DNA of 64,000 bases. Origin: Candidatus Bathyarchaeota archaeon. Lineage in GTDB: Archaea; Thermoproteota; Bathyarchaeia; 40CM-2-53-6. The notes under the pieces were generated by a model that saw nothing but the letters and a program-made list of their open reading frames with translations, did not search any database and was not told the DNA's origin. This document shows, piece after piece, positions 1 to 46,012 of this stretch. Every line of letters begins with the position of its first letter. Within the stretch, counting starts at the first letter, position 1. The position numbers were made by a program, and so were the translations under genes. Location of the stretch: positions 32,001 through 96,000 of the forward strand of contig CAVPLU010000009.1 in NCBI GenBank assembly GCA_963706285.1, in the 5' to 3' direction.

Positions 1-381
1 TGAGCCTATGAAAGCGTGTCATCGCTCTGCCGAGAAGGATGCACGATGGAGAATCCTATTAGACTATATCTCTTTGTTTTGTGGGCCGCGATGCTTGGCA
101 TGTATTGGCCTAGAGCCTGCTCGTGTTTTGGTGTTGCTTTGGGGTTGTCACGTGCTGGTATATTTGTGCTAGGATAGGAGTTGCTTTTCTTGTTTCTTAT
201 TCTGTTTAACTGTAGCTGTTCCGCTGTACTTCGGTTACTGCTGTTGTAGCTGTTGGTATGAGGGTATTGTCTGCTAGAGATTTGTATCCTCGGAGGGTAT
301 TTTCTGCTGGTGTTTGTTTTTCCGGGAGATCTTGCGGTGCCGGGCTTCCGAATTTGAACCGTCGCACTCGTCATTGAACTA

Positions 382-393
382 GTGTGTGCGCAC
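382..393. repeat. Partial copy of the dispersed TGTGTG/GTGCGCAC palindromic element
   Basis: gtgtgtgcgcac matches the core of the copies at 2326 and 45861. Confidence 0.55.
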
Positions 394-410
394 TCCTACC
401 GTAATTCATT

Positions 411-1275
411 TCACTGATTCGCAGACTTGCTTCTTCTGACCTCAGCCGGCCGCGTGGGAGGCCACCTAGCAGCGTCAAAATGTTCGAGATAGAAGTCCTT
501 TGAAATTGCACCTGTAACTATGCCTTTCAGAATTGGCCAATTGTGCGGGATTGTGGCGAAGTAGATGTGCTGGATCGCCAGCCCAATCAACAAGAATGCA
601 AAGAAGTCATGGGTCATGAGGAGCAGTTGCGATTGTTGCATAGTCAAAGAGGGGCATGGGTATCAGCCATGGCAGCGGGTCCCAGAAGTAGATGCCCGTG
701 ATGCCCAGCGCTACGATTGAGATACTCAATGTCCAATGATAGCTCTTCATGAAGAAGTCGTACTTGCCTTCGCGGGGGTACTCTCTCGCGCGGCCAAGGA
801 AAATCCTGGCCCGCTTCCTCGCATCAGCGATATCCGTTCTTCCGAACCAGATATTCGCCCAGCCCCGAACTACAGCTGTATCCCACACGATGTGGATGAC
901 AATGAGCGCCAGCAGCGCCCAAACGAACGTCGTGTGCGTTGCGATCTTGGCACTGGTACTACTTATCCCAAGGAGCGACATGATGGCATCAACGGGTCCT
1001 GCTGGGAGAATGGTGATATTGCTCAGAGCTAGGAAGATCGAGACACCGGTCAGAGCCATGATGCCTAGGACCACGAAGTCGATCCAATGGAATAGTCTCT
1101 GTACGAGATCATAGGTCGTCACCTTATTTCTTGGGACGACGACAATCTGCTGCTGCTGGGGTCGCGTGTGAGTCCATCCTCTAACAGCCCATGCAAACCA
1201 GTGAATAATGCAACCGAATATGAAAAACAGAACGATGGTGAACGGAATCGCTGGTGCTAGAGCCACGGGTATCAA
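411..1275 (-). CDS. Cytochrome b-type membrane subunit (Ni/Fe-hydrogenase cyt b / formate dehydrogenase gamma-like), split by a frameshift near 640
   Basis: QRLFHW, LIVIHIVW, GKYDFFMKSYHW and LAIQHIYFA heme-ligand helices; ORFs 607-1275 and 411-647 join into one protein. Confidence 0.75.
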
Positions 1276-1478
1276 CAGCTGGAAATTGCAGTGGACTCTC
1301 CTTTAGTGTTTAGGATTAGACGAGCCCCTGCATCAAGAGCGGCGACACGTGTCACAGTGGCTGCGATGAAGCGTGAGATTCAAAGGCAACGTCGTCTAAA
1401 ATAACTACCGTTGTCAAGATAGGCTGTTCGGAGATTCCTCCACCTACTCGTTGATGCAGGAGTCGTCGGTCCTCAATC

Positions 1479-1520
1479 TGTGTGTGGGTCTAGTGGTGCG
1501 CACCAGCCAACCCACACACA
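1479..1520. repeat. Full palindromic element (42 bp)
   Basis: tgtgtgtgggt-ctag-tggtgcgcacca-gcca-acccacacaca: 11-bp perfect outer arms and a 12-bp perfect central palindrome. Confidence 0.85.
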
Positions 1521-1650
1521 TCCCCCATGCGAGTCCAAAACCGATTGTTTGACCCCCATGAGAGGCACGCATTAGGAAGGCGCTACCTCTCTCGTAAAAT
1601 ACATGACCGAGGGCAAATGTTAAGTATTTCAGACGTTAGAAATAGTTTAC

Positions 1651-2004
1651 ATGGTGGAAGAAATGCGTAGGAACTTGATCGGTTACTTGGGATTCATGGG
1701 CTTCCTAGGTCTCTTGGGTTTGATTGTCGACAATCCCGGATTCTTTGGATTTTTCGGGTTCTTCGGCTTCTGGAGTTCAATGGGGGGCAAGGGTAGCGAT
1801 GAGAGAGTGGATCAGAACGTTAACAGGGCCTGCAGGAATGCATTCATATTCAGTATGGTCGCATCAGCACTCCTCTTCTCGTACATAGGGATTCTTCAAG
1901 CTGCAGAAGCGTTCCAGCTGGCAGTGTCAGTCGCAGTCTTGTTTGCTGGCGGCTTGACGATATTCGTTGCATCGTTCGTCTACTACGACAGGTTCAGTGC
2001 CTGA
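1651..2004 (+). CDS. DUF3796-like membrane protein
   Basis: [10 protein letters not shown]...[10 protein letters not shown] and DER motif; paired with a downstream XRE regulator. Confidence 0.75.
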
Positions 2005-2015
2005 GAGTCCTCGAC

Positions 2016-2219
2016 ATGAAGACGAAGATCAAAGAACTGAGAGACAAGCGCAACCTTACTCAAGAGGCTCTGGCTGAGAAAGTGGACGTCACAAGACAGA
2101 CTATACTCTTCCTAGAAAAAGGAAAATACAACCCGTCACTGAGATTAGCCTACAAGATTGCCAAAGTGCTGAACTCGAAGATCGAAGATGTCTTCTCCTT
2201 TGAAGATGAGAGGCTTTAG
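2016..2219 (+). CDS. XRE/Cro-like HTH transcriptional regulator
   Basis: [34 protein letters not shown]. Confidence 0.95.
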
Positions 2220-2325
2220 GAACTTGCGAATAATCGCTTGGCGAGTCTTTCTCCGAGAGATTGAGACAAGAGCGAAATCCCCTAACCCGTTGAGGTGGCT
2301 GTCGTCGTTCGTCGTTTCGTTTGAA

Positions 2326-2357
2326 TGTGTGTGCGCACCATGAAGACCATACACACA
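2326..2357. repeat. Palindromic element copy
   Basis: tgtgtgtgcgcaccatgaagaccatacacaca; its reverse complement aligns to the copies at 1479 and 3726. Confidence 0.75.
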
Positions 2358-2526
2358 TCACTACCTCCCAAGGGGAAGGCGGAAACCGCATTGTGGAAGA
2401 CTTCAGAGCAATGTCCTTAGCCCAGTTGAAGAGTATTCGTAACAACGTGACATAGGTGCGGATCAGAGCGCGTTCGGCAACTCTTTTATGACTATGAATC
2501 CTCAGGGCCAGTCTAAGTGCTGAGAT

Positions 2527-3628
2527 GTGCCCGCCAAAAAGCTAACAATCGTATTTCTCCTAGTTATGTTCGCGCTTGTGCTCGTCGCGGAACCATTGCA
2601 CGTCCACGCCGCGTCATCCCTGGTCCAACGAAATTCGACTTGGTGCAACACCTTCCATAGCTATGATGTATGCAATGACGCTGCAACGCTCTCGGTTTCT
2701 TTCGCAAGCGGCGTGACAAGCGGGAATCTACTGGTCGTAGCTGTGACGGTTGGGAGTAACCCTCCGGTCACGGTAATTTCCGTAAGTGATTCCCGAGGCT
2801 CTTCATTCACTCAAGCTGTATCAGACTCGATGACAAACAATTATGCCTACGCCTACATCTACTATGCCATTCTCTCTTCCAGCGGACCTGACACGGTCAC
2901 AGCAACCTTCAGCGCGGTGCCCTACAAAGATCCTAATAGCTTACTGGGCGGCACGCGGGATCGCATACTTACACATCTTTGAGGTTTCAGGTGTCACCAC
3001 CGTAGGCATTACAACCGGCGAGGGCCACGGTTTGCTTTCCGGTGAGGGCACGATCTCCACATCATCCACTCCTTTTCAAAGCGGAGCCTTCCTCGTAGCC
3101 ATCGCAACTGAAGACATTTTGACCGGTAATTGGGCTGTTGGAACCGGTTTCACTCTATCTCCGAACCCACCCTACGATCAGTATAATGATCTTTCAATGA
3201 CTCAGTACTCGACTTCCGGAGTTGGCAGTCCAACCACGTTCCCTGCAACACTCTCAGCTTCCGGCGGGAATGACAAGGACTGGGTTGAAGTTGGTGCAGC
3301 TTTCCAACCAGGGGTTGTAACTGTCACCACGGTTGTGAGTACGGTGAGTACGGGTACGCTGAGTACGGGTAATCGCTTCATCCCAGTAACAACGGTGATT
3401 TCCTATTCAACTACAAGTTGGACTTCGGCTGGCGGCACAGTCACACAACTAGTGACCGAATTCGACACTATCTACGGCTATTTCATGAATGTCGTCGCTC
3501 AAGCAGTGGGCGGCTTCATTGAGGAGACAAACAAGCTTGGCGTCTTGACGACATGGTTCACAATACTCGGATGCGTCGCAGCCGTAGCATTCGTCGTTGT
3601 GCAACCGCGGAAGAAACCTGAGAACTGA
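2527..3628 (+). CDS. Secreted/surface Ser-Thr-rich protein with C-terminal membrane anchor (frameshift at about 2930-2980)
   Basis: N-terminal signal peptide, beta-rich body, Thr-rich linker and VGG..NKLGVL-TM-RKK tail across ORFs 2527-2982 and 2843-3628. Confidence 0.75.
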
Positions 3629-3725
3629 TCTCATCTCGGCTTCCTCTCCTGCTCCGCGTCAAGAGGACCGACACGCTAAGGAACGCTTCACAATTTACCT
3701 ACCTGGCTCGTTGTTTCAGCCGTTC

Positions 3726-3751
3726 TGTGTGGGTCTACTGGTGCACACACA
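3726..3751. repeat. Palindromic element copy
   Basis: tgtgtgggtctactggtgcacacaca, near-identical to the left part of 1479-1520. Confidence 0.8.
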
Positions 3752-3929
3752 ATATCTGAAATGATGACGAACGACTGGTAAGAGGACCAACAAAGTGACC
3801 AACTTCAGTGTAAGCGCTTCGTTTAGGTAGCGAAAGAATGAGGATAGGGATGCTCAGTTCTCGGGTTTCTTCCACGGCTTCGCCACAGCGAGCAGTTTGG
3901 TTGATCGAGACACCGAGCCCAGAATTGAG

Positions 3930-4133
3930 TTACTTCGGTTCTATTTCGAACTCTCCTTCGACTACTGCGCCGAACCCCTTGGCTATTCTGAGTGAGAGCG
4001 TGACCTTCGTGTTGTAGTCGACCTTGTGAACTTCTGCGTCTTTCAGGTCGACGTGTTCATGATTGTGAATTTCTCGTGCTTGATCTCCATATAATCTAAA
4101 CTTGACGATCATGCTAGATCGCTCCCATCGCAT
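3930..4133 (-). CDS. Small hypothetical protein
   Basis: 67-aa ORF with globular, beta-rich composition. Confidence 0.45.
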   Translation of the reverse strand: MRWERSSMIVKFRLYGDQAREIHNHEHVDLKDAEVHKVDYNTKVTLSLRIAKGFGAVVEGEFEIEPK

Positions 4134-4418
4134 GTAGCCTATACCAGCACTCGTAACAGTGTGCTGTCTTGGTGAGAGCTTTCTTTTGTTGGTGACATTC
4201 CTTACATTCAGGCATCTTGCTTAACCCTTGAAGGTACATGAGGTTCATCTACGCCATATTACACTTGTCAGAAAGCATGGGAATCCTCCTGTTCTGCATG
4301 AGAGAACGAGTACGGTTGTGAAGCAGCTGGTTTGATTTGGGGTTGTGAGATGCCTGGAGATTGCTATGCCGTTGATTTGTGCGTGATTCTCTTGGGGCGA
4401 GCACCTAAATCTGAATCG

Positions 4419-4672
4419 TCAGAATGAAGTGTGAACCCGCACCAACAAGGGGGAACTAAATAGTTCGATCATGCGTTCTTGGTCACGGACTATTCCAGTT
4501 TTCATGATGTCCTCTTTCGTTTCTTTGACTAGGATGTCATTTTCCGGTTTGTCCAAGATCTCAGTGAGTGTGAAGTATCTCACAGAGGGATTATCTCTTT
4601 CTAGGAGCCATTCTGTCGGGTCCGCCTTCAAGATGGATCTCCAATCGCTCACCCTTCCAACCTCCATTTCAT
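4419..4672 (-). pseudogene. 5' fragment of a conserved ~330-aa prenyltransferase/cyclase-fold-like hypothetical protein, truncated after ~60 codons
   Basis: WRSILKADPTEWLLERDNPSVRYFTLTEILDKPEND..VKETK..IM is recognisable as a family N-terminus; it then runs into the direct repeat. Confidence 0.6.
4429..4498. repeat. 70-bp direct repeat, copy 1 (copy 2 at 4786-4855)
   Basis: gtgtgaacccgc...atgcgt...ggtcacggact.ttccag is colinear without gaps in both copies. Confidence 0.85.
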
Positions 4673-4737
4673 CCTCCCTCAGCAGCCTCAAAAGGTGGCA
4701 TGATCCCTCCTTCACACTCGAGTCTGAGATTTCGTTT

Positions 4738-4762
4738 TGTGTGTGGGTAGGCTGGTTCGGGC
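4738..4762. repeat. Palindromic element half copy
   Basis: tgtgtgtgggtaggctggttcg matches the reverse complement of the right half of 1479-1520 (tgtgtgtgggttggctggtgcg). Confidence 0.75.
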
Positions 4763-4785
4763 GTCCAAATGTGTGGCCAGGATGA

Positions 4786-4855
4786 GTGTGAACCCGCGCC
4801 AAGAGGCCAGAACTAGGCAACTCAATTATGCGTCTTTGGTCACGGACTTTTCCAG
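4786..4855. repeat. 70-bp direct repeat, copy 2, overlapping the 3' end of the thioesterase gene
   Basis: Aligns without gaps to 4429-4498. Confidence 0.85.
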
Positions 4856-5269
4856 CGCTAGTATGCGTTGCTTCAATTCCTCGGGCAAAGGCGTCTTCTT
4901 GTTCTCGTGGTAATTGTAGGAGACTATCACTCCTTCTCCCTCAGCCGCAGTTGCCTGGGCTTTGTGGCTAATGGCATAATGTTCCATCACAAACCTGTCT
5001 TCTTCAATTCTCGAAATCCGTGTACCGACAGAGAGCGTGTCAGGGTAAGTCAGCGGTACCTTGAATTTGCATTGAATTGAAGCTAGAATTGGTCCTATTC
5101 CAGTTTGGTTCATGTACTCCCATATTCCCAACTTCTCAAGATACGCGATTCTTGCACTTTCGAAATAGCGGAAATACATGACATTGTTGACGTGGCGTAG
5201 AGAATCCATCTCTCCCCATGCAACTGGTATCTGTATGACGACAGGGCAGCTTGCAAGTGGTTCTTTCAT
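4826..5269 (-). CDS. Acyl-CoA thioesterase (4HBT/hot-dog fold)
   Basis: VAWGEMDSLRHVNNVMYFRYFESAR motif. Confidence 0.93.
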   Translation of the reverse strand: MKEPLASCPVVIQIPVAWGEMDSLRHVNNVMYFRYFESARIAYLEKLGIWEYMNQTGIGPILASIQCKFKVPLTYPDTLSVGTRISRIEEDRFVMEHYAISHKAQATAAEGEGVIVSYNYHENKKTPLPEELKQRILALEKSVTKDA

Positions 5270-5430
5270 GATACAACTCGCACCTTATCTGACTCTTTCG
5301 CGGTGTTTCTAATCAAGACTTGCGCTCGGGTCTCCTTTCATCTTGTGTGTCGTTCGTAGGGTACAACGACGTCGCTGGCATCTTTGAAAGCTTAAACGGT
5401 CCGGGCTGCTTCGTGAATTGCGATCACTGA

Positions 5431-5721
5431 ATGTCCACGCAGACAAGCTATGACTCAGCGGTGCTTTGGGAAGTGCTCACAGAAACAGTCCATGCGCTCC
5501 CCATGTACAAGCATCACAAACACTACGTGGAGAAGGTCCTACTGCCGGAGAAACCCCGTATCTCCGCCAAAGAGATGGGACTGGTTATGGGCATGCCCCT
5601 AGGCGAGGCGATCGTGATTCTCGAGGAACTGAAGCCTTCCAAGGAGACACCTGAAGGGCAGTCTAAGGCCAAAGCGGCCACAGCCACTGGTAAGAGCCTC
5701 CTCGACTATGGAACCAAGTGA
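5431..5721 (+). CDS. Hypothetical protein (possible HTH)
   Basis: ATG ORF after a TATA-like cttaaa; ISAKEMGLVMGMPLGEAIVILEEL helix pattern. Confidence 0.65.
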   Translation: MSTQTSYDSAVLWEVLTETVHALPMYKHHKHYVEKVLLPEKPRISAKEMGLVMGMPLGEAIVILEELKPSKETPEGQSKAKAATATGKSLLDYGTK

Positions 5722-5745
5722 CCAGATCATCTGAGGGCTTTCATC

Positions 5746-6907
5746 TTGTCCGGCGTTGTGTTGATCTCGACTGCAGAGTTCGCCCTGAAGAGCCAACCAG
5801 TGCGCCACCTGCTCATTCGACTATTGAAGACACACATCAGGTTCAATCTCAAGCGCATGGGGATTGGCAACTGCAAGATCACGCAGGCTGGAGGATTCCT
5901 TGTCTTGGACGGCATTGACGATCCGGAAAAGTGCGCCAAGGAATTGGCTGAGGTGTTCGGAGTCGCTCACGCCGACGCCTGCCAACGAACCCAACTAGAT
6001 CTAGGAGAAATTGCGGGGGGCGTGGTCAGACTGGCCCAAGAGAGGCTCAAGAATGGAGAGACATTTGCAGTAAGAGCACGCAACTTCGAACCTTCACAAA
6101 TCAAAGGAAAAGAGATCGAAGTACGAGCAGGCGCAGAGGTACTGTCTCAACTTCCGAACGGCTTGAAAGTAAACCTGAGCAATCCGGATCACACTCTACG
6201 AGTATTCTACGGTGCCAAGGAGGCATTCGTCTCCTCTGCACGATTCAATGGTCCGGGTGGACTGCCGGTTGGTTCTCAGGGAAGACTTCTCGGCCTCGCA
6301 ACCGACCCAGCGTATGCACCCTTTGTCGTTCTATTTGTTGATGAAACGCGGAGCCATGGTTTGGCCGGTGATTCCCAATATTCCCGCAGTCCTAGGCGAG
6401 ACTCGGCCCGAAGAGATAGTCGACGGCCTCAGGAAGTTGGCGCCGTTAGTTCCGAAGAAAGACTACTATATCCGTCTTCTAGAACTCGATGATGCCACAT
6501 CGAGAATACTGGACTCCGCAGATAGGTCACTTCAAACGATCCTTGCGTTGCGTCTCGTTTATCGTGCATTCGCGAATATCATTCAGACTGAACGAGTACT
6601 CGGACTTGTGACGGCTGACAATTTTGGCCGCAACGGTCTAGATTCGCTGAAAGATTTGAGAGTCTTCGAAGATATCGTGAAGTTTCCTGTCTACCGTCCG
6701 CTACTTACTTTGGATGATGAAACCATGGATCGAGCGCTTGCGGAACGCGGACTACTGCAATTCGTGAAGAATGGAGCGACGAGACAGGGGGATCGCTTGG
6801 GTCTGTCAAACGTGTCGGCTAAGAATCTCAGAGAGCTAGAAGAACGTCTTCATGTGGAAGACCTAGCCAAACGTATCGCTGATGGGTCTACGAGAATCCA
6901 GATCTAG
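5746..6907 (+). CDS. ThiI-like THUMP-domain protein with degenerate PP-loop (frameshift near 6322)
   Basis: EFALKS..VR, TFAVRAR, KVNLSNPD, GPGGLPVGSQGR, LMKRG and VYRPLL motifs. Confidence 0.8.
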
Positions 6908-8108
6908 CGGCCAGATCCATTACGTACCGGGTCGCAGTTCCGACGGCGTCTGTTTCGATTGCCATTTGTCTGAATCTCTCCGTTGTTGCCGGCGGCGAGT
7001 TCAGCAGTCTTCTCGTCGCATTGAGAAGGCGTTCCGTTGTAACTTCTTTTTGGGGAATAAGTTCGGCAAGGCCTAGTTTGCATGCTCGTTTTGCGTTGCC
7101 GTACTGTTCAGTGTGATCGGGGATAGGTATGAGTATCATTGGTTTCCCGAAAGTCATCGTTTTCGTTATCATTCCATGGCCTGCTCGGCAGATGACAACG
7201 TCGGCTGCTTTCAACAGTCCATACTGATCATCAACCCAGCCGTAGATGGTGAGGCTACTGTTGTGCAATGGAGCTGAGGATCCTGTCGGGTCACCGCGGG
7301 ATAGGACGACTTGGCAATCGCTTGGGAATTGGCTTAGGGAATGTGAAAGTAAATTCGAAAGTACGGTTCTCTCGGTTTTCGGGCCACTGACGGCTGCGTA
7401 GACTAGCGGTTTTCTAGAGTCGAAAGAAAATGATGCCTTTAATGTATCTTGACTCGGGAGTTGCGAGGGTTCCACCGGAACGATTGGTCCGATCAACTTC
7501 ACTTTCTCAGCGTATCGTTTCGGGATTGTAAGGTTGCTCGCTGAGATTGTGTAGGGAGACGGCAGGTCTGGAATCAGTATTAGATTGCTTCTAGCCCAGA
7601 CTCCTCCGATGACGTTCCTGAATAGGGTCCAGAAGAGATTCGCGATCAAGAAGAATAGTCTCTCGATTGGGGTGATCTGTTCTGTGGAGGGTTTCTTGAT
7701 GATCTCTATGCGGAACTGGTTTAACATCAGAGCGACGGGTACGCCGAGCAGTCTGGCGGCGATGAGAGAGGACGCTCTTGAATCAGACAAAATGGCGTGT
7801 GGGCGAAATCGTTTGATGTTTCTGATCTCAGCCGTCAATTGTTTAAGAAATGTTCTCACTCCGAGCGAAAAGCCGCTCGTAGCAGCAGTCATCTTGAAAT
7901 CGACAGTTCCATCTTCTTTGACCTTGAATCCGATCGGAACGGTCGGAAGCGTCTTTAGACCTCTCTTCTTGGCATAGTCGAGACCGTCCAAGTAGGTCGA
8001 GAAGGTTACCTCCACCCCTTTGGAGGTCAGCATCTCTGCGATTGGCTCGCACCTTGTGATGTGTCCGAGTCCGATTCCACATGGTGCGACATATACTCTC
8101 AACGGCAA
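6888..8108 (-). CDS. MurG/GT28-like glycosyltransferase
   Basis: CGIGLGHITR, ADVVICRAGHGMI and IPIPDHTEQYGNA. Confidence 0.9.
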   Translation of the reverse strand: MPLRVYVAPCGIGLGHITRCEPIAEMLTSKGVEVTFSTYLDGLDYAKKRGLKTLPTVPIGFKVKEDGTVDFKMTAATSGFSLGVRTFLKQLTAEIRNIKRFRPHAILSDSRASSLIAARLLGVPVALMLNQFRIEIIKKPSTEQITPIERLFFLIANLFWTLFRNVIGGVWARSNLILIPDLPSPYTISASNLTIPKRYAEKVKLIGPIVPVEPSQLPSQDTLKASFSFDSRKPLVYAAVSGPKTERTVLSNLLSHSLSQFPSDCQVVLSRGDPTGSSAPLHNSSLTIYGWVDDQYGLLKAADVVICRAGHGMITKTMTFGKPMILIPIPDHTEQYGNAKRACKLGLAELIPQKEVTTERLLNATRRLLNSPPATTERFRQMAIETDAVGTATRYVMDLAARSGFS

Positions 8109-8113
8109 CCGCT

Positions 8114-8731
8114 CTAGAGTTCTTTCAGGCGCACTTCCCCGTTCGGTTCACTTTCTTCGAAGATGACTGCCTGAAATTTCTCGACTTTTGTATCTTTATC
8201 CAGCCACGCGTCAGGAGGCAGATCTGCTTTGAGGCAACAGTTGCTGAGGAACTCTTCTGCATTCCAGTTCCACTCAGGAGCGACCTGCGGAAGCAGCAGT
8301 CCGCGACGGCCACCTCGTCCGACTATCAAGCCGTCTCTGCCGATCTCAATCTCCTTCGCACGTTCAACGGGCATTTTGGCGGCGACCTCCTTAGGAACAG
8401 TCAGAAGACTCACTTCCATCACAACGCGTTCCTTGAACTCTGAAAGTCCGACGGGGTCGAATCGTGGGTCTGCAGTGGCAGCCTCTATGGCTGATCGGAT
8501 TGTGGCAACGGCGAGGGGCTCGGTTGGGAGGGGAAATCCTATGCAGCCTCTAAGCTGAGAGGTTGGCTTTGCTGAGTTCAGAGTGACAAAAACGCCTGAC
8601 TTCTCAAGAAGGTGTTTTGGTGTGTTTGCGGGCGGATCGATATCGAGGCCACTTGTGAGGTATTCTTCGATTGCGCTTCTGGCAAGATTCACAAGGAACT
8701 TGCCATCGCTAATCGAGAACGGCGCAGTCAT
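8114..8731 (-). CDS. AMMECR1-domain protein (AmmeMemoRadiSam protein A-like)
   Basis: GVFVTL, LRGCIG, DPRF and GLLLPQV. Confidence 0.95.
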   Translation of the reverse strand: MTAPFSISDGKFLVNLARSAIEEYLTSGLDIDPPANTPKHLLEKSGVFVTLNSAKPTSQLRGCIGFPLPTEPLAVATIRSAIEAATADPRFDPVGLSEFKERVVMEVSLLTVPKEVAAKMPVERAKEIEIGRDGLIVGRGGRRGLLLPQVAPEWNWNAEEFLSNCCLKADLPPDAWLDKDTKVEKFQAVIFEESEPNGEVRLKEL

Positions 8732-8751
8732 GTTCTCTCAATCTCGTTTCT

Positions 8752-9237
8752 CTACTCTGTTCTCTTTTGGATCTCTTTGGCCTTCTCTAGTATCGCGTTG
8801 ATATTCTCCCAGTGACTACCTTGCCAGTACACTTTTCCACATTCCGGATTGGAGCAATTCCAGAACTCATCGAACGCATTAAAGGTTGCCGCGGGTATCT
8901 TTTCCCTTACTTCATTCTTGAGCGCCTTCGTGAGAGGCGCTCCGCAAATAGGGCATCTTGAATCCGGCGCGTCCACCGAGAGGTTCAACTTGAATCTACT
9001 CGCCAAGCCTGCGAGCCTTTCAGCTTCTGTCGGCTCCTTCACCAGATAGGAATTCGCTCCTCGAGCAGTCGCGAATCGATAGAGCGCTACGTCAGATGTT
9101 AGCAGAACTCTGTTCTCCCTAACGGCGACAGCTACAAGTTCTTGGTCTTTAGTATCATTCAGATACATGGCGTCATGGCCCATCATCCGGAGCCACCTAG
9201 TGAGTTTCCCTAGCATCCCGTCTAGGACGAACCTCAT
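8752..9237 (-). CDS. Mut7-C RNase (PIN-like) domain protein
   Basis: FVLDGMLGKLTRWLRMMGHD, SRCPICG and CGKVYWQGSHW. Confidence 0.93.
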   Translation of the reverse strand: MRFVLDGMLGKLTRWLRMMGHDAMYLNDTKDQELVAVAVRENRVLLTSDVALYRFATARGANSYLVKEPTEAERLAGLASRFKLNLSVDAPDSRCPICGAPLTKALKNEVREKIPAATFNAFDEFWNCSNPECGKVYWQGSHWENINAILEKAKEIQKRTE

Positions 9238-10574
9238 GCTTCCACGCTGCGTGCAATTATCTTCCCTTGATTCTTCTCAACGATCTCTCCTCGATCATAC
9301 ACAACATGCCCGGCGACAATCGTCATTACAGGGCGTCCAACGCATCTGACTCCGTCGAACGGTGAGAAATGCGCTTTCGAGTAGAACTTTGACGAATCGA
9401 TTTTGAATCGATCCTTTGGATCAATGAGCACGACATCTCCATCCATTCCTGCTTCAAGACGTCCCTTTCCTTGGAGCCCGAATATTCGTGCAGGGTTCTC
9501 GGCAAGCAGTCTAACGAGCAATGCCAGGCTTATCTCATCATGACGAACCTTAGTCAGCAATAGTGGGAGCGTCGTCTCTAGTCCAGGCAAACCTGGGCTT
9601 ACCTTCCACACGTCCCTCGCGGTCTTCTCCTCTAGACTATGAGGAGCGTGGTCGCTCGCGATCATGTCAATGTTTCCGCGGATCATGGCCTTCCAGAGTG
9701 CTCTCGCATCGCTGCGTCCTCTGAGCGGTGGCACCATTAATGCGAATCCACGTTTCCGATTCAGATCGGTGCTGTCTAGAAACAAGTGATGTGGGGTCAC
9801 TTCGCATGTGATCTTCACTCCTTTCTTGCGTGCTGCAGAGATCTCTTTCATGCTTCGATGAGTGCTCAGGTGACAGATGTGCACCTTTGAGTGAGCTCGA
9901 CGAGCAAGGTCTGTGACTGCCCGGACGGCTTCAAATTCGAACTTTGGTGCGTGAGCCCTCAGAAAGTCTTGCATGGAATTCATTCCAGCCTTGACGCATC
10001 TCGTCCGGATTGCTTCAATGTCAGGACCGTTCTCTGCGTGGACAGCGACTAGAATGCCAAGCGATCCACACTCTTCCATTGATGAGAGTAGTCTTTGATG
10101 ATCGTTATGCCACGCATCCAAGTTGGGTTCGTTCATGTAGAGTTTGAATGCGATCGCGCCGGCGTTCATCATTTTGCGAAGGTCGAGTGCCGATTCAGCT
10201 AGAGAAGCGTAGAACCCGACATTCACATTAATCGCGGTTCTCGCTTTCGTGATCTTCTCGACAAGTCTTTCATCCGAGTTGGTGGGAGGTTTTGTATTTG
10301 GCATGTCAAGGATCGTCGTGAATCCGCCTGCGGCAGCAGCGAGAGTTCCGCTCGAGAAGTCTTCCTTGTAGGACAGTTCCATGTCCCTGAGGTGAACATG
10401 AACGTCAATGAGCCCGGGAATAGCGATTAGGCCCTTGCCATCGATCGTCCTGTCAGCTTTAGGGAGAAGTGCAGTTTTGCAGATCTTCTCGATCCGTCCA
10501 TCTCGGATAGAGATGCCGCCTTCGACGAGTTTCTCTCCGAGAGCAAGTCTCGCATCAGTTATGTTGACGGACAT
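9234..10574 (-). CDS. pyrC: Dihydroorotase (amidohydrolase family)
   Basis: PGLIDVHVHLR, AAAAGGFTTILDMPNT, CEVTPHHL and SDHAPH. Confidence 0.9.
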   Translation of the reverse strand: MSVNITDARLALGEKLVEGGISIRDGRIEKICKTALLPKADRTIDGKGLIAIPGLIDVHVHLRDMELSYKEDFSSGTLAAAAGGFTTILDMPNTKPPTNSDERLVEKITKARTAINVNVGFYASLAESALDLRKMMNAGAIAFKLYMNEPNLDAWHNDHQRLLSSMEECGSLGILVAVHAENGPDIEAIRTRCVKAGMNSMQDFLRAHAPKFEFEAVRAVTDLARRAHSKVHICHLSTHRSMKEISAARKKGVKITCEVTPHHLFLDSTDLNRKRGFALMVPPLRGRSDARALWKAMIRGNIDMIASDHAPHSLEEKTARDVWKVSPGLPGLETTLPLLLTKVRHDEISLALLVRLLAENPARIFGLQGKGRLEAGMDGDVVLIDPKDRFKIDSSKFYSKAHFSPFDGVRCVGRPVMTIVAGHVVYDRGEIVEKNQGKIIARSVEA

Positions 10575-10659
10575 CACCGACGTTCCCCTTGAGCACCAGG
10601 TGGACCGCACGCTGGGCGCAATGGGGGCATGTCAGCAGAAAAGGTCTGTGGATTCGATC

Positions 10660-11244
10660 CTACTCTTCCTTTTCAAGGTCGGCGCTGCATTCCGAGCAAA
10701 GGAAAGATCCATCATGTGATTTCAGGTTGTCAGACCACGTTTCGCACTCGTCGCAGTATCCCGCCAGTGCGCTTGCTTCGCGGGGGTCTACGAGGGGCCG
10801 GATCTTCGATTTCTCTTCCATAACATCGATCAATGCTGGGGTGATATCAACAATGTCTGTGCCGGTGACTATTCCGATTAGTTTTCCTGCTTCTAACACG
10901 GCGAACCGTTTCACTTTTGCCTGTCTCATTTTTCTGGCTGCTTCTTTCACGTCGAGGGTGGGTTCCACGGTTCGCAGTGGCCTGGACATGATCTTTCCTG
11001 CTTTGATCTTGTTCGGGTGCAACCCTTTGGCAGCTACTCTGCGTACAAGGTCTTTCTCAGTTATCATGCCCAGTGGCTTGCGTTTCTTGTCCACGACCAC
11101 AACGCTGCCTATCCCTCTCCTTGTCATGGTGTTGGCCACTTTCGTCACGGTGTCTTCTTCTCGGACAGTGACGACGGGGGATGACATTACATCCTTGACT
11201 TCCACATCTGGTCTGTCGGGAGTGGCTGACATTTGAATCGCCAA
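10660..11244 (-). CDS. CBS-pair protein with C-terminal zinc ribbon
   Basis: Two CBS repeats plus GYCDEC...FLCSEC. Confidence 0.9.
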   Translation of the reverse strand: MAIQMSATPDRPDVEVKDVMSSPVVTVREEDTVTKVANTMTRRGIGSVVVVDKKRKPLGMITEKDLVRRVAAKGLHPNKIKAGKIMSRPLRTVEPTLDVKEAARKMRQAKVKRFAVLEAGKLIGIVTGTDIVDITPALIDVMEEKSKIRPLVDPREASALAGYCDECETWSDNLKSHDGSFLCSECSADLEKEE

Positions 11245-11265
11245 TACTGGACCGAACGATCATAC

Positions 11266-13266
11266 TTAAGGGCTTATCGAGTTAACTACTTCAACTCCGC
11301 CAGGCGGCAATATTCGTATTACATCATCCATTGGGATGCGCCCTAGCTCGTTGCGCAAATTCTCTTCGGCCTTAGCTGTCAACTTTGCGAGGATTCTCTT
11401 TGCCACTTCTGCGGGGCTCCCTCTTCCCTGTCGTATCTGCACATAAGTGCTGCACCTGTTTTTCACTGCGCTCAGGGGACCTGCCATTAAGAGAGTCCTG
11501 CTGTCGTGTAGAGTCAGGCCAACGGCAAGTGCCAGGTCTACCCCTCGGATGTAGTTGCGTGTGCCTCGAATCATGAATGCTCCTTTTGTCAAATATTCGC
11601 CGGCGGGGGCGCTTTTGGTCACTTGTTCTGGTTTCACCCAGTAAGCATCGCCGGAGCGAATTCCCTCCTTCCAGAGGCGGCTGTAGGATACGCATGCTTG
11701 AGCGGCTTCTCTGAGAGTTTCAGCGGTCGGTTGGATGCCCCCGGTTTTCATCACAATGAAGGGTGCTCCATGAACCTCCGCATGCATGATCAAGTCTTCT
11801 GGGTTAGTGTACCGTTTCAGAAGAGTCTCATTTGAGCCGGCGTCCCGTCCTCCTAGGACCAGCAGTCCTTCTGAGGAATCGAACCACCTGAACTTCTCGA
11901 ACCACTCTTTCTCGAGCTTACGCTCAGGTTTGGCGTGCTGTTTGAGTTCGAGTTCCTTGCTCGCTAATTTGTCAAGCAGAAGTTCAGTCTCTTCGGTAGC
12001 GGTCTTGAGTCCGAGGAGTTTCGACTCGAGGTGTTTCGCTTTCGCATAGTATTCGGCGGCTTGATCCTGCGGTCTTACTCTGACTTCGAGTTCGATTTCT
12101 CTTTCCTCGAAAGCGAAGGTTATCTTGTCGCCGCTCGGGGTGAGTTTGCGAACATGTGGATAGAACCGTGTCTTGTCGGTCTTTTCTTTCAATAATGAGT
12201 CTATGATCTCGTTGAGCGGTTGTTTCGAACGTTTCCCATTCATCACAATTTCGATGACGCTCTGTATATCTTGGAGGTGGCGAAAGATGAGATCCCCTGT
12301 GCTCCTCAGCGTTTTTGCTGATTCGTTGATCTCTTCCAGCTGTTTCTTCTGTGCATCAAGTCTTCTCTGAAGTTGCAGTCGCTTGTCAGCGTGGGCCGCC
12401 TCACGTCCTTCACCTAACGTGGAAGATGAGAGGGTTGTGAAATACTCGTCGATTGCATCGTTGAAACTTGTGTAGGTCTTCTTCTGCATTGCTTGGTACA
12501 GTTCGAGGTCGAATGGGGTGACATCGATCATGTTCTGGTTCTCTAACACGATCATTGGTGATTGTGCTGAAGTTGATACAAGATCTTTCAGCTTCACGAT
12601 TGTGCTTGAGATGTTCTCGATTTGATCATCGGACAGGTTTGCGGCGGATGAAGACTTATCGATACGTGCTCGTTGCATGATCTCTTCGGCAAAGGTACCG
12701 CTTACTCCGAGCATCTGAGCTAGTGCTCTGACGGCATCGATATCGCCTAGGTTTCGTAAGTCTCGTACATCACTGGGTGTTGCCTCAAGAAGGTTCTTGC
12801 CTCTTTGGGGGGGAAGTCTCAAGGGTTGTCCTCTCAGGATGTTGCGGTCCTTCATTCGAATGTAGTGAGACGAGACGATCACTCTGTCGTGTTCGTCGAT
12901 CAGAATGATGTTGCCTCTGGGTAGGAGTTCGACCACGATCTTCTGGGGCTTCTGCTCTCTCTCGATCCCCACTATGACTATTCGCTCGAAGTTCGGTTGA
13001 TCGATACTGACGATCTTAGCCGATCTGATGTGTTTGCGCAACTCCATACAGAGTTGTGACGGTTTAGGAGGGGTCTTGACTTCAAACTTGGTGAGGTGGA
13101 TTCTCCTCGCAGGTTCGACTACAAGGTTCAGATTGCTGGGATGGATCTTGAGGAGGAAGGCCTTCTCCGTAATTTGATAAACGTTATGTATGCGTCCTCC
13201 GATTGTGTGCTGCCTTAGTTCAGGAAGAATTGCTGCTATGTCGAAATTCGTCATCGCGGTTTTCAT
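11266..13266 (-). CDS. rqcH: Rqc2/NEMF family ribosome quality-control protein (NFACT)
   Basis: MTNFDI, FERIV, WFEKFRWF, GGRDAGSNE and GEYLTKGAFMIRG. Confidence 0.93.
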   Translation of the reverse strand: MKTAMTNFDIAAILPELRQHTIGGRIHNVYQITEKAFLLKIHPSNLNLVVEPARRIHLTKFEVKTPPKPSQLCMELRKHIRSAKIVSIDQPNFERIVIVGIEREQKPQKIVVELLPRGNIILIDEHDRVIVSSHYIRMKDRNILRGQPLRLPPQRGKNLLEATPSDVRDLRNLGDIDAVRALAQMLGVSGTFAEEIMQRARIDKSSSAANLSDDQIENISSTIVKLKDLVSTSAQSPMIVLENQNMIDVTPFDLELYQAMQKKTYTSFNDAIDEYFTTLSSSTLGEGREAAHADKRLQLQRRLDAQKKQLEEINESAKTLRSTGDLIFRHLQDIQSVIEIVMNGKRSKQPLNEIIDSLLKEKTDKTRFYPHVRKLTPSGDKITFAFEEREIELEVRVRPQDQAAEYYAKAKHLESKLLGLKTATEETELLLDKLASKELELKQHAKPERKLEKEWFEKFRWFDSSEGLLVLGGRDAGSNETLLKRYTNPEDLIMHAEVHGAPFIVMKTGGIQPTAETLREAAQACVSYSRLWKEGIRSGDAYWVKPEQVTKSAPAGEYLTKGAFMIRGTRNYIRGVDLALAVGLTLHDSRTLLMAGPLSAVKNRCSTYVQIRQGRGSPAEVAKRILAKLTAKAEENLRNELGRIPMDDVIRILPPGGVEVVNSISP

Positions 13267-13308
13267 GACGGAAACACACATTCAACGCCATCCGGAGCGT
13301 AACTGGCC

Positions 13309-13602
13309 GTGAAGCCTTCTTCGACAGTTTACTGGTCAAGGTTCTTCATAGCCATTGCTACTGGAATTGGATCTGTGGTTGCGCTTGGGGAAGTTGCTAC
13401 TGGTGAGATGGCGTCAGTCATCTATCCGGCGGTGGCGATTCTGGTCTATGCTCTCACGGTAGCGTTCTATCGATACGGACTGCGTTACGGCGAGGCTGAG
13501 TTGAAGACTAAGAACAGGGTCGTCACTCTGGGAATCGGCACTTACATTTTCGTTTGGTTGGCCTCTCTGACCCTAGCCTATACTCTGTTTGGTCCTCACT
13601 GA
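13309..13602 (+). CDS. EMC6/Rab5ip-like three-TM membrane protein
   Basis: VYWSR..IA..TG in TM1; GIGTYIFVWL..LTLAYTL C-terminal helix. Confidence 0.55.
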   Translation: MKPSSTVYWSRFFIAIATGIGSVVALGEVATGEMASVIYPAVAILVYALTVAFYRYGLRYGEAELKTKNRVVTLGIGTYIFVWLASLTLAYTLFGPH

Positions 13603-14000
13603 GCTACGGGCTTTGCTTCCTCTGCTCGGCTACGTGTATTGTTCGTCAGCGAGTAGACTTCTTCCTCTTCCATAATCTTTGCCAGTCGCACTAGTCCGCT
13701 GAAGTATCCTCTGTCATAGTCACCGTAAAGTGGACTTTCCGCGTTGTTCGCGAACTCTTTCATGAGTATTTTCAGGGTCTTCTTGTCGAACTCTTTCTTA
13801 GCGAAGAAAAGGTAGTTGTCGTTGTTTGCCTTTCTTGTGAGAGCAAGTCCTTCCAGCGCTTTGACGTAGCCTCTGTTCCATTCTGTGTTAGTGAATTTTG
13901 GTTTGAGTTCTTCAAGCTCTTTTTCTGCATCGGCGATCTTTCGCTCAACGATGAGTCGCAGGTACTTGTCTATCTCCTTTTCAGGTATTGCTCCAGCCAT
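13596..14000 (-). CDS. Conserved hypothetical protein directly downstream of radA
   Basis: Abuts the radA stop; repeated W/Y-x-RGY helical motif. Confidence 0.75.
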   Translation of the reverse strand: MAGAIPEKEIDKYLRLIVERKIADAEKELEELKPKFTNTEWNRGYVKALEGLALTRKANNDNYLFFAKKEFDKKTLKILMKEFANNAESPLYGDYDRGYFSGLVRLAKIMEEEEVYSLTNNTRSRAEEAKPVAQ

Positions 14001-15011
14001 CTATCCTCGCCTCTTGACCTCGTCCTCTTCAGAGACGTCCTTTATCCCTTCCTCTGTAATCTTGAAGATCCGTTCGCCTTCAGGCAGGTACGGGCTTGAG
14101 ACGAGGCGTGCAATTCTGACCGGTCCGCCGGTTGCTCGTCTCAAAAAAATCCTGGTATGTGAAGTATGTGCCACGATGTGCCCTCCCACTGCTTCAACTC
14201 CTGACGCGAAGAAGGCGTCTGGTTTCGACATGACTTGATTGGTGACAACAGCAACTGCGTTGAAGGCCCTTGCGAGCCTGACAAGCCTGTGCATGTGACT
14301 GTTGATTTTTTGCTGTCGTTCTGCGAGGTTCTCACGTCCGAGGTATTCGCTTCGAAAGTGAGCTGTCAATGAATCGACAATTATCAGTTTGATGTTGTTC
14401 TCTTGAATGATCTTATCCGCTTTTTCCAGGATCAGTATCTGATGATCCGAGTTGAAAGCCTCAGAGTAGATAATGTTCTTCCCGACAGTCTCCGGGTCGA
14501 GACCTAGAGAACCAGCCATCCTAACGACCCATTCAGGTCTGAACGTATTCTCTGTGTCAACGTACAGTGCCCCCCCGTTGAGACCGCCCTGCTCAATTGG
14601 CAGTTGGGCGTTCACGGCAAGTTGGTGGCAGAGTATGCTCTTGCCGACCCCATATTCTCCATAAAACTCGGTGATTGTCTGACTCTCCAATCCCCCGCCA
14701 ACAAGTTCGTCAAGTTGTTTGCTCGTCATCGAGAGGCGAAGGAGGTTCTGTCGCATCCTCATCAGTTCATCTGCCCGGATGAAGCTTGTGGCTATACTAT
14801 CCCGGGCCTCTATGATGATCTTGGCTGCTTGCTTCTCGCCCACGCCAGCTTGAGTCAGTTCCTTTATGGTGGCCGTTGCAAGCGATTCAACCGTGTGATA
14901 TCCAAGTTCTCTCAGCTTCTCTGCGGTGGCTGGTCCTATACCGGGGATGTCATCGATAAGTTCGTATTTCCTCTTCGCGTCAGTCGTCGTCTTCTCTTCC
15001 GGCTCGGACAA
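14001..15011 (-). CDS. radA: DNA repair and recombination protein RadA
   Basis: N-terminal HhH (IPGIGPATAEKL), GEYGVGKS Walker A, DSLTAHFRSEY and LAERQQK. Confidence 0.97.
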   Translation of the reverse strand: MSEPEEKTTTDAKRKYELIDDIPGIGPATAEKLRELGYHTVESLATATIKELTQAGVGEKQAAKIIIEARDSIATSFIRADELMRMRQNLLRLSMTSKQLDELVGGGLESQTITEFYGEYGVGKSILCHQLAVNAQLPIEQGGLNGGALYVDTENTFRPEWVVRMAGSLGLDPETVGKNIIYSEAFNSDHQILILEKADKIIQENNIKLIIVDSLTAHFRSEYLGRENLAERQQKINSHMHRLVRLARAFNAVAVVTNQVMSKPDAFFASGVEAVGGHIVAHTSHTRIFLRRATGGPVRIARLVSSPYLPEGERIFKITEEGIKDVSEEDEVKRRG

Positions 15012-15367
15012 GGTTTTCCCACCATACCCCTACAGCCAAGCGGGCGCCATGCCTTCGTGCCAGCTGTGAGGTCCCATAATCCCAGACAACACTTACGCCC
15101 ATGACTGACATCCACGCATTATTTCAAACTTCACTGCAATCCACACGATGCGAACCGCGGATATATCTCAGAGAGCCGAATGAAAGTAGAGCTTGTGCAG
15201 GCTGTTTGCGGCAATAACGAAGCAACGGGCGCAGTCATTCTGGACAGGTTCATGCCCAGCGGGGGCGCTGGGCAACAGCATCCGAGTCATCTTGCATGGC
15301 TCGGCGTTGGCGCATAGCTTGACGGTTTTAAGAGAGAGTAGAACAAGAGTCCTTTGGGAATTCTATA

Positions 15368-16153: not shown

Positions 16154-16377
16154 TGATCTGCGAACTCTGGTATCATAACGCGGGCTGCCTTGGAGACGAG
16201 TCCGCTCATGGAGCGAAGGCATTATTCGTGCCATCTCGTAAATCCATCTAGAATAGGCTGGCGATTTGTACGCCAACAAGAGATGCATCGACACATAATG
16301 CACTGGCAACACTAAGAAGATCTCTTGCGAATCAGCAGGAACCACCAGTCTCAGATTCCAAGAAAATCAGGGGAGCG

Positions 16378-16863: not shown

Positions 16864-16932
16864 GCGCGGCCGCGGGGTTCAAGAGCCAGATGCTAAGAGC
16901 TATTTCCGTAGCTCAACAGCATGAGGCTCTAA

Positions 16933-18129: not shown

Positions 18130-18208
18130 ACCTGATTTGAGTTTTAGAAATTTCGCTATCGACATATCTTTAAGCAAACTTGATACTACGTTCGAGCGAG
18201 GCCATGAA

Positions 18209-19306: not shown

Positions 19307-19366
19307 CGCGCCGCAAGCTTACGTAACAAATGCTCGGCATCGTAGAATAGACTTCAGGGCTACAGA

Positions 19367-45890: not shown

Positions 45891-46012
45891 GTGAGTCCAG
45901 ATCACGATATCCGCATTTAGTCAGCACAGTAGAGGACAGAGTTTCTTGCGTCTCGATTTGAAGGACTGCTATCGATTATCGCTGCGCGCCGTTTATGGCC
46001 TTAGGTGATCAC

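Follow-up and report, generated by a model that had tools for sequence, protein, structure and literature searches.

The gene array and its repeat units

We have examined a 64,000-nt stretch of DNA (the window), contig C9:32001-96000 of the Candidatus Bathyarchaeota archaeon assembly GCA_963706285.1 (G000), the first 5.4 kb of which carry small accessory genes separated by copies of a short repeat and form the end of a repeat cluster on C9. An earlier, sequence-only reading of the window had described a ~30-bp palindromic element delimiting each gene unit. The repeats proved to be real and above chance, and a copy does lie between each of the unrelated gene units of the array, but the palindrome is a minority form, found in 13 of 90 sorted matches from G000 against 32 of 90 in a long form: the 30-bp palindromes are derived short variants of a larger modular unit. 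This unit resembles the 3' end of a tRNA, is clustered in variable islands of G000 and is found in related genomes, between which several breakpoints of homology fall inside or at the edge of units.

Read in orientation F, the reference direction for the box names A, B, C and D, the full unit is ~45-57 nt long and consists of CGTCGT (A), ~10 nt (s), TGTGTGTGG (B, the TG box), 6 nt and TGGTGCG (C), followed by RGC, ~5 nt, GAATTTGAAC (D) and CGTCGT (A). Long units were collected by three rounds of nhmmer at E<0.01, and a sequence-only model (R1) was applied to the window at E<0.01. The module TGTGTGTGG-N6-TGGTGCG was scanned for separately, the 90 matches sorted being those with at most two mismatches together with those with exactly three. 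R1, which is blind to the short forms at 2326 and 45858, has six matches in the window, all inside 341-4770 and none in 5-64 kb. The copies listed earlier at 382, 1479, 2326, 3726, 4738, 5345, 45861 and 59575, as well as GTGTGAACCCGCRCCAA pieces at 4429 and 4786, are all in the sequence; absent from that list was the long unit at 4376-4422, which is the strongest model match in the window. The features are as follows.

322-364, plus strand: degenerate long unit with a weak TG box, TTGCGGTGCCGGGC, then CCGAATTTGAACCGTCG (R1 341-364, E 4.7e-5; nhmmer 341-363)
370-395, no strand assigned: partial inverted piece TTGAAC-TAG-TGTGTGCGCAC, the copy given earlier as 382, preceded by the degenerate long unit
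411-1275, minus strand: cassette 1, a cytochrome b561-like gene (607-1275; Pfam Ni_hydr_CYTB, E 1.1e-14) and a small open reading frame (ORF)
1479-1520, no strand assigned: head-to-head double form TGTGTGTGGGTCTAGTGGTGCGCACCAGCCAACCCACACACA, with the module at 0 mismatches on both strands
1538-2236, plus strand: cassette 2, with its own promoter region, DUF3796 (1651-2004) and XRE helix-turn-helix (2016-2219) genes (Pfam DUF3796, HTH_3)
2326-2357, minus strand: short form, reverse complement TGTGTATGGTCTTCATGGTGCGCACACACA, 0 mismatches, matched also by nhmmer and the module scan
2527-3628, plus strand: cassette 3, a putative surface or membrane protein in overlapping frames 2527-2982 and 2843-3628 (from the ORFs)
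3724-3751, plus strand: short form TCTGTGTGGGTCTACTGGTGCACACACA, found in the sequence and by nhmmer, the module scan and R1
3856-4274, minus strand: cassette 4, a 67-aa ORF (3930-4133) and its upstream region, with no Pfam match
4376-4446, plus strand: long unit (4376-4422; R1 E 1.2e-11, nhmmer E 6.6e-9) and inverted acceptor-like piece GTGTGAACCCGCACCAA (4429-4446)
4450-4736, minus strand: cassette 5, what remains of the 5' end of a gene that in genome G008 encodes 286 aa; no Pfam match
4736-4806, plus strand: long unit with degenerate T-loop part (4736-4770) and inverted piece GTGTGAACCCGCGCCAAG (4786-4806), from the models and comparison with genome G001
4826-5269, minus strand: cassette 6, a 4HBT_2 thioesterase (Pfam E 3.1e-30), the last variable unit before the core
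5344-5385, plus strand: degenerate anchor unit (TTGTGTGTCG, a deletion, TTCGTAGGGTACAACGACG) at the border of array and core, aligned to G008:C1
45858-45888, no strand assigned: short form AGTGTGTGCGCACCGGCCCAAACACAG at a synteny break
59575, strand not stated: weak copy in the sequence, CTCTTGGTGCACACAAC only

Among the gene labels proposed earlier, those of the cytochrome b561, DUF3796, HTH_3 (XRE) and 4HBT_2 genes were borne out by Pfam, and the surface protein, the 67-aa ORF and the truncated gene had no Pfam match. For cassette 1 no homologue was listed in the congeners (the other nine genomes of the genus, which with G000 make up a genus set of ten), and cassette 3 has only a 125-nt match among them, in G001; its split gene is either a frameshifted pseudogene or a sequencing error. 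The gene of cassette 5 and a diverged copy of the 3' end of the thioesterase gene are fused at ~4471-4510. The flanks of this cassette (4429-4510 and 4786-4866) form a diverged duplicate of ~80-130 nt comprising a unit, an inverted acceptor-like piece and the thioesterase 3' end, and the fusion to the duplicate lies at the short common stretch GGACTATTCCAG / GGACTTTTCCAG.

Structure and forms of the unit

The half B-N6-C is common to all forms of the unit, and what comes next differs by form: D-A in the long form, the reverse complement of B (the CA box) in the short palindrome, and the reverse complement of the whole half in the double form at window position 1479. The short and double forms have TG...CA inverted ends, and in 12 of the 13 short palindromes the CA box stands directly after TGGTGCG (offset 0). 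It may be substituted by CGTCGTCG, CCACCACCA or CGCCGCC, and variants with CGTCGT or CCACCA boxes also exist.

With up to three mismatches, the 15-mer TGGTGCGCACACACA has six matches in the window against 1.49 expected, a number reached by none of 100 shuffles; the TG-box half TGTGTGTGGGT taken alone is not significant there (17 matches, 12.5 expected). Over the whole of G000 the module gave 43 matches at up to two mismatches compared with 0 in a shuffled genome, and 47 compared with 17 at exactly three.

It is the sequence of the unit rather than a fold that is conserved. Folded as single-stranded DNA, one of seven window copies clearly beats its shuffles, namely the double form at 1479 (-13.5 kcal/mol, z -3.9); the short forms at 2326 and 3724 gave z -1.7 and -1.5, one further copy z -0.07, and the long units in the window showed no folding above shuffles. 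RNAalifold detected no conserved RNA or DNA fold in 26 long units on either strand. Covarying stems (TGGTGGTGG...CCACCACCA) were dropped as evidence because only a single clean case was present in G000. We also rejected the reading of the unit as a coding N-terminus (ATGACGGTTCAAATT...), an ATG being present in only a subset and the units standing in tandem between genes.

The family had been called unfamiliar, and Rfam indeed returned no match for it in the window even at E<=5. No description of the repeat was found in the literature searched, which extended to part of PMC10848311.

Likeness to a tRNA 3' end

The reverse complement of the unit reads ACGACGG-TTCAAAT-NNNNN-CGCYCGC-A-CCA-N6-CCACACACA, and its parts correspond in order to the T-loop, the 3' strand of the T-stem, the 3' acceptor strand, the discriminator and CCA of a tRNA, followed by a (CA)n box. 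The loose unit pattern and the models also retrieve real tRNA 3' ends, and one of the 55 nhmmer matches in G000 is a true tRNA end. The most informative case is in G035, a genome of a neighbouring genus, where an intron-bearing tRNA gene ends ...GGGTCCGAATCCCGGCGGCCGCACCA (GCACCA) and is followed by ACACAT, CCACACACAC (the box as CCACACACA), 10 nt and ACGAACGACGACGG (ACGACGG and the start of a T-loop), and then by a partial second copy of the tRNA's own end (TCCGAAT...CGGCCGCGCCA) with a degenerate box. This tRNA and its tandem partial copy reproduce the grammar of the unit exactly and reveal its origin: judged by sequence, the units evidently descend from a tRNA 3' end together with its downstream flank. 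Partial copies of tRNA 3' ends between cargo modules are a hallmark of tRNA-targeting islands, and that is what is found here. In G000 the array on C3 starts 48 nt past an intact tRNA gene, in the same sense, and the acceptor end of that tRNA differs from the unit.

The unit does not itself qualify as a tRNA or as half of a split tRNA, since the 5' side of its T-stem (GACGG) pairs at ~3 of 5 positions with a variable 3' side; ARAGORN and Rfam found no tRNA in the window. We also considered whether the unit might be a conserved 3' trailer of tRNA genes and rejected this, the CA box being present after none of 16 Rfam tRNAs and none of 24 T-arm-defined ends in G000.

Distribution in the genome and in relatives

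G000 comprises 2.13 Mb in 21 contigs (51% G+C, 89% complete, 7.5% contamination). It holds 55 long units at E<0.01, of which 50 lie between rough gene calls covering 75% of the assembly. Their orientation relative to the flanking genes falls into four classes of 18, 11, 11 and 10, with no preferred orientation or distance. The units are clustered, at 23-65 kb on C3, 4-37 kb on C9, 50-52 and 139-141 kb on C10, 4-16, 57-58 and 99 kb on C16, and 68-70 kb on C6; the even spread through core intergenic DNA, or fixed distance from promoters, that would have spoken against a link with gene gain and loss was not seen. Two or three units often stand in tandem, repeating every 50-64 nt. All nine long units of C9 are on the plus strand and the genes on both strands; over the whole genome, a uniform orientation of units was not significant after tandem copies were collapsed.

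Across 61 relatives, R1 matches number 5-97 in each of the ten genomes of the genus, a ~20-fold range of copy number. Genomes of a second genus have 2-58 and those of a third, from the same family, 0-3 weak ones; a few genomes from other families within the order have 7-26. Across genera and families the unit is conserved at E about 1e-12. When the exact unit pattern was scanned against one genome per species (185,579 species), at least 130 stretches were found. Of the 80 listed, 75 bore the titles Candidatus Bathyarchaeia or Bathyarchaeota, which agrees with the earlier guess of Bathyarchaeia, and the others came from an unclassified archaeon (one) and from bacterial metagenome-assembled genomes (MAGs; four). 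Of the four bacterial matches, two correspond to the ends of ordinary bacterial tRNAs; the other two (L075 and L106, from Nitrospiraceae and Methylomirabilota MAGs) are genuine units. The contigs binned as Nitrospiraceae and Methylomirabilota represent either mis-binned Bathyarchaeia DNA or transfer between domains.

Recurrence of cassettes among congeners

The proposal that the enclosed genes are shuffled, gained and lost between strains is upheld by comparison with the congeners, in which single cassettes recur on other contigs:

1538-2236, DUF3796+XRE cassette: in G004:C33, G003:C55 and G006:C112, 85-88% identity, with different neighbours
3856-4274, 67-aa ORF block: in G008:C5 and G002:C30, 93-94% identity
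4489-4746, truncated gene: in G004:C33 and G008:C7, 89-91% identity
4835-5321, thioesterase: in G008:C2, G004:C25 and G002:C86, ~78% identity, away from the core genes of those genomes

Two of these cassettes share one array in G004:C33, in reversed order. The thioesterase is collinear with the core in G001 only, and from 5384 on several congeners are collinear with the window. The unit-rich stretches of G000 that we compared with the nine congeners (window 1-5400, C9:20001-32000 and C3:28001-40000) gave only short single-gene matches scattered over many contigs, whereas the core control, window 8001-20000, gave long collinear matches in all nine. Moreover, identity between species reaches 85-94% in three cassettes, compared with 70-79% in the core DNA of the same species, a difference which points to recent exchange. 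Homologues of the cassettes in relatives have a unit within ~1.1 kb in nine of 11 placements and on both sides in five of 11; we give this as description only, because units abound all along those loci (~160 kb, with 47 nhmmer matches at E<=1).

Beyond the window, Pfam annotation of 46 ORFs in C9:1-40 kb revealed miscellaneous accessory genes, some of them fragments. In one island (C9:11706-15977, L001) an adenylate/guanylate cyclase-TPR gene has beside it a second copy that is broken into a cyclase fragment of 104 aa and a TPR protein. This island also carries PvlArgDC and AHSA1 genes whose matches begin far into the respective Pfam profiles, and several of its genes are fragments.

Contigs from four wetland or peat metagenomes (Logan) were also compared with the array. 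They contain joints from 364 to 1479, from 364 to 2326 and from 4422 to 4785, with 5-16 other bases between the two sides, and in them the DUF3796+XRE cassette and the 2326 unit are preceded by units other than their neighbours in the window. Some sides consist of 22-26 nt of repeated unit sequence, and we therefore regard these joints as the same cassettes in other places and not as excision products or circles. Reads from excised circles had been suggested as a test of mobility; the single back-joint that was listed (2325 to 1479) possibly arises from a short repeated flank and cannot be read as a circle. Of the words sampled from window 1-6000, at most 0.20 were present in any public run, and no RNA run was among those listed. 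In two wetland metagenomes the summed contig depth was ~100-270 over 1601-2200, 4001-4200 and 4601-4800 compared with 0-30 over neighbouring and core positions; such an excess would fit widely common cassettes present in multiple contexts, but depth is unsuited to ranking and was not used.

Breakpoints and insertions at units

A coincidence of units with synteny breakpoints had also been anticipated, and several breakpoints of homology do lie inside units or at their edge. In G001:C101 the sequence that ends with GTGGTGCG matches, at 87% identity, the flank at C4:173378 of G000, which carries a unit half (TGTGTG...TGGTGCG), and beyond that point it is 83% identical to window 45894-46014, so that the switch falls within 9 nt after TGGTGCG. 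The G000 copy at 45858 is the same short form, inverted relative to that of G001, and its left and right flanks are on different contigs in five of the five congeners tested. To the right of the truncated-gene cassette three genomes are alike up to the TG box; G000 and G008 stay alike through TGG(Y)(K)CG before they diverge, and G004 goes on with an inverted half. A 6.8-kb difference between G000 and G001 on C3 has a unit at each end, and homology stops there between the 6-nt spacer and the box. Homology with G001 starts again at window 4796, inside the composite at 4736-4806, and in G001 it is a unit most like the 4376-4422 copy that stands directly before the thioesterase. The switch points, whether after TGGTGCG or between the spacer and the CA box, are therefore within units and not at one fixed base.

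The clearest insertion is a 7.2-kb island with three units (C4:173187-180393) which occurs only in G000. Its flanks abut in all nine congeners, with an overlap of 9-12 nt between the matched flank blocks in five of the nine; in four genomes the sequence of the empty site is ...GAGCCTTATTTAAGGTATCCAAC.... In G000 the occupied site reads ...TTATTTAAGGTA, then the island, then ...CGTCGTGCGTCGTTGTTTAGGGTA and TCCAAC..., so that the island is bounded by 12-nt direct repeats (TTATTTAAGGTA / TTGTTTAGGGTA, 10/12 identical), and a long unit ends 6 nt before the right copy. The island, a presence/absence variant with direct repeats and an intact empty site, looks like an att-type (attachment-type) or target-duplicating insertion of unit-bearing DNA into a unit-free site.

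At the array/core border, the weak copy at 5344 aligns with a full unit at the corresponding position in G008:C1, where the neighbouring core gene is the same and the DNA upstream differs completely. With this anchor common to the two species, the position of the array is therefore older than the species, whereas its content is not.

Interpretation

Our current interpretation, in which confidence and doubt are about evenly matched, is that the units are att-type junction sites of a trans-acting, tRNA-style integration and cassette system. They would mark the joints of flexible islands whose cassettes, 0.4 to ~10 kb long and with their own promoters, appear to be gained, lost and reshuffled singly. 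The units may be arm-and-core attachment sites, relics of attL and attR, for an integration enzyme supplied in trans. Circular or incoming unit-bearing DNA would integrate next to a unit already present or, now and then, at a new site, and repeated integration would give rise to arrays of cassettes separated by units. Later events between units could then delete, invert and shuffle cassettes, and the same events could create the fold-back short forms and the head-to-head palindromes, all of which carry the half TGTGTGTGG-N6-TGGTGCG. The family itself, its distribution, the likeness to a tRNA end, the link with gain and loss and the breakpoints in units are observed; the dependence on a recombinase, the position of the crossover and any circular intermediates are what we infer for the scheme.

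A number of observations weigh against integration at units. Integration of a circle cannot account for every one of the empty tandem units, which stand ~55 nt apart, and once tandem copies are collapsed the orientations are close to balanced in G000 (14 same, 12 opposite), compared with 18 same and eight opposite in G008. The position of the breakpoint within units is variable. The reciprocal palindrome, with T-loop halves head to head, has seven matches against 5-9 in shuffles, and antiparallel recombination at a palindromic core was rejected for want of this excess; a general RGGTA crossover core, the motif beside the 12-nt repeat of the C4 island, was likewise rejected, an RGGTA-like spacer following only nine of 50 units. 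The consensus of the unit is single for all arrays and is not a copy of the neighbouring tRNA, and the link to tRNA genes is weak: in a genome where tRNAs are poorly detected, a same-sense unit lies within 3 kb downstream of only three of 32 detected tRNA ends, compared with 0.82 expected by random placement (P 0.058). A 3.15-kb island directly after the tRNA at C10:102317 (C10:102327-105475; L210 4327-7475), which is empty in G009 and G003, of different content in G004 and partial in G001, has its own ~40-nt imperfect direct repeat of the tRNA flank, and its unit lies ~420 nt in from the edge rather than on it. This island has the look of a separate system of integration at tRNA flanks.

The same holds for the search for an enzyme. 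The linked tyrosine, serine or HUH recombinase that had been predicted did not materialize: in the 89%-complete G000 there is no match to PF00589 (Phage_integrase), PF00239 (Resolvase) or PF01797 (Y1_Tnp), nor to the reverse transcriptase family PF00078 (RVT_1). There is no recombinase among the 46 ORFs of C9:1-40 kb by Pfam, and the sole TnpB-like gene of the genome (C10:220335) is unlinked to units. Six of the ten genomes of the genus have tyrosine recombinases, the four others carry units all the same, and a unit lies within ~1.5 kb of only one of eight tyrosine recombinase loci. Two findings do hint at an integrase. In IMG/VR three of four unit matches were genuine, and one record of 51.7 kb encodes, near the end of the contig and ~260 nt away from its unit, a tyrosine integrase of 363 aa that has a zinc ribbon; no second (att) copy of the unit was found on this record, which is a 58%-complete fragment. 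Homologues of this integrase occur in 12 of the set of 61 relatives, in ten of the 25 with five or more units and two of the 36 with fewer, a comparison in which kinship is uncontrolled, and a unit is near only one of 19 loci of these homologues. On the counts of one in eight and one in 19 we rejected adjacency of integrases to units as a general feature of the relatives. The absence of any PF00589 match in G000 extends even to a XerA-type chromosome resolvase, which may lie in the missing 11%.

The sequence-only reading had left it undecided whether the repeat is a recombination site of mobile cassettes or an element akin to repetitive extragenic palindromic (REP) sequences or miniature inverted-repeat transposable elements (MITEs). 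The link with variable regions has held; an active site as opposed to a passive repeat is a matter of inference. REPs, with the bacterial interspersed mosaic elements (BIMEs) and REPINs that they compose, are short intergenic repeats of tens to hundreds of copies, arranged as singles, inverted pairs and tandem mosaics, and are hot spots of rearrangement and of insertion sequences; they are hairpins with a GTAG-type head, are mobilized by REP-associated tyrosine transposases (RAYTs, of the Y1 type) and are spread through core intergenic DNA. A selfish repeat of this REP/BIME or MITE kind might multiply in dispensable intergenic DNA by transposase, slippage or gene conversion, would serve only as passive homology for recombination, and would accumulate in islands because insertions are tolerated there. 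We regard this explanation as improbable, yet as the main rival. Like REPs, the units are short and intergenic, with 5-97 copies per genome, one consensus everywhere and many mosaic forms (long, short, double, CGTCGT or CCACCA variants), and the tandem empty units with their 50-64-nt periods, the mixed orientation, the varying breakpoints, the want of a conserved fold in the long form and the failure to find a linked recombinase are all as expected of a passive repeat. Unlike REPs, they are confined to islands, the long unit does not form the stable hairpin (no consensus structure among 26 long units), and no RAYT/IS200-type (PF01797) gene was found in G000, whose one TnpB-like gene is unlinked. 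Neither a bare unit present in one genome and absent from another within collinear core nor a parent transposon was found. Conservation across genera and families is hard to square with a neutral repeat, the palindromic joins are fixed (12 of 13 short forms), and the C4 island amounts to 7.2 kb of inserted cargo, has a unit at its edge and is bounded by a 12-nt direct repeat.

The remaining alternatives are weaker. The units might be cis-acting signals of the host, such as protein-binding sites, insulators, terminators or tRNA-like small RNAs, placed between genes of foreign origin. Intergenic placement, strong sequence conservation, the tRNA-like T-loop and ACCA, and short forms capable of forming hairpins would suit this view; we nevertheless think it quite unlikely, given that there is no fixed orientation or distance to genes, that the T-stem is unpaired and the long form is without conserved structure, that units are missing from core intergenic DNA, that Rfam gave no match and that copy number varies ~20-fold within one genus. 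A classical integron, or a cluster of attC sites lacking an integrase (CALIN), is a very remote prospect: the arrays have the look of cassette arrays and archaeal integrons are known (PMC9668308), but the explanation fails on the defining features, the unit consensus being without the RYYYAAC/GTTRRRY ends of attC sites, as had been observed earlier, with no intI-like PF00589 gene in G000, mixed orientation of sites and genes, conservation of sequence and not structure, and the same gene accompanied by different unit forms in different genomes. An artefact of assembly or binning, in which chimeric joins form at short repeats in a MAG with 7.5% contamination and near-identical duplicates (C4/C20, C6/C7), can be dismissed almost entirely, as the same arrays are present in ten genus genomes including assemblies of ten and three contigs, units of 30-57 nt that are ~70-80% identical have neither the length nor the similarity needed to mislead assemblers, and independent public contigs have the same unit-cassette joins.

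Taking the units as att-type junction sites, the closest known picture is that of the tycheposon islands of Prochlorococcus. Cargo modules pile up there at conserved places, separated by partial tRNA copies, degenerate remnants are scattered, most cells are without an integrase and cargo is exchanged faster than the core; the partial copies are those of the neighbouring tRNA, and the element itself carries a tyrosine or serine recombinase (10.1101/2020.12.28.424599). The two resemble each other in having modules at conserved island sites, tRNA-like pieces between them, scattered degenerate remnants, cargo that is exchanged more quickly than core genes and an integrase that is missing from the host. 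They differ in that all arrays here have one and the same tRNA-like consensus with its (CA)n box, present 5-97 times in a genome, and in that there are empty tandem and palindromic units, cassettes often of a single gene, no linked recombinase and archaeal hosts. Next closest are integrons and CALINs, archaeal ones included, which have small cassettes with or without a promoter and short, imperfectly palindromic sites that are more alike within than between lineages, arrays without an integrase being common (PMC9668308). Arrays of small cassettes with imperfectly palindromic sites and no integrase are shared with these systems; the differences here are the want of attC cores and IntI, the conservation of sequence and not of a fold, the mixed orientation and the variable number of sites between cassettes. 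Archaeal integration at tRNA genes by integrases of the SSV type duplicates a partial tRNA 3' end at the far side of the insert, and tandem integrations occur; the att copy matches the local tRNA and is present once per element, and the integrase is carried along and often split by integration. The units differ in having one consensus irrespective of the local tRNA, many copies and no linked integrase.

Bathyarchaeia are among the most abundant uncultured archaea of sediments, peat and wetlands, and to our knowledge gene exchange among them is largely unexplained. A further proposal, about which we have more doubt than confidence, is that the units belong to an undescribed archaeal, integron-like cassette platform with a tRNA-acceptor-like site, a recombinase acting in trans and possibly derived from viruses or integrative elements, and hot spots in several genera of Bathyarchaeia. 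If the units are active, they would define a flexible gene pool whose cassette boundaries could be found in metagenomes with a simple 21-base pattern, would offer a concrete DNA substrate for finding the enzyme, and would add to integrons and tycheposon islands a third design of cassette array, the first to be specific to archaea. Even as passive repeats they would be a practical marker of hypervariable regions and recombination breakpoints.

Further observations on the assembly

The loose motif also matched five tandem copies with a period of ~142 nt and GTGTGGCGTCCGAGTACTGGTGTGTGGTATAT at C19:29074-29633, which are unrelated to the unit. Near-identical stretches were seen between C4:222230-222337 and C20:1503-1610, including a tRNA gene with its flanks, and between C6:22519/31606/37381 and C7:3265/12356/18130; these are probably strain duplicates that account for the 7.5% contamination. 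Rfam (RF00005) gave only 16 tRNA matches in G000, all with introns, many at non-canonical positions, and all encoding CCA, examples being C10:102221-102317 and C4:39815-39905. Well-formed tRNA 3' ends at C3:165484, C4:358701 and C13:56673 were missed by Rfam, which suggests that the tRNA genes of this genome are multi-intron or otherwise unusual.

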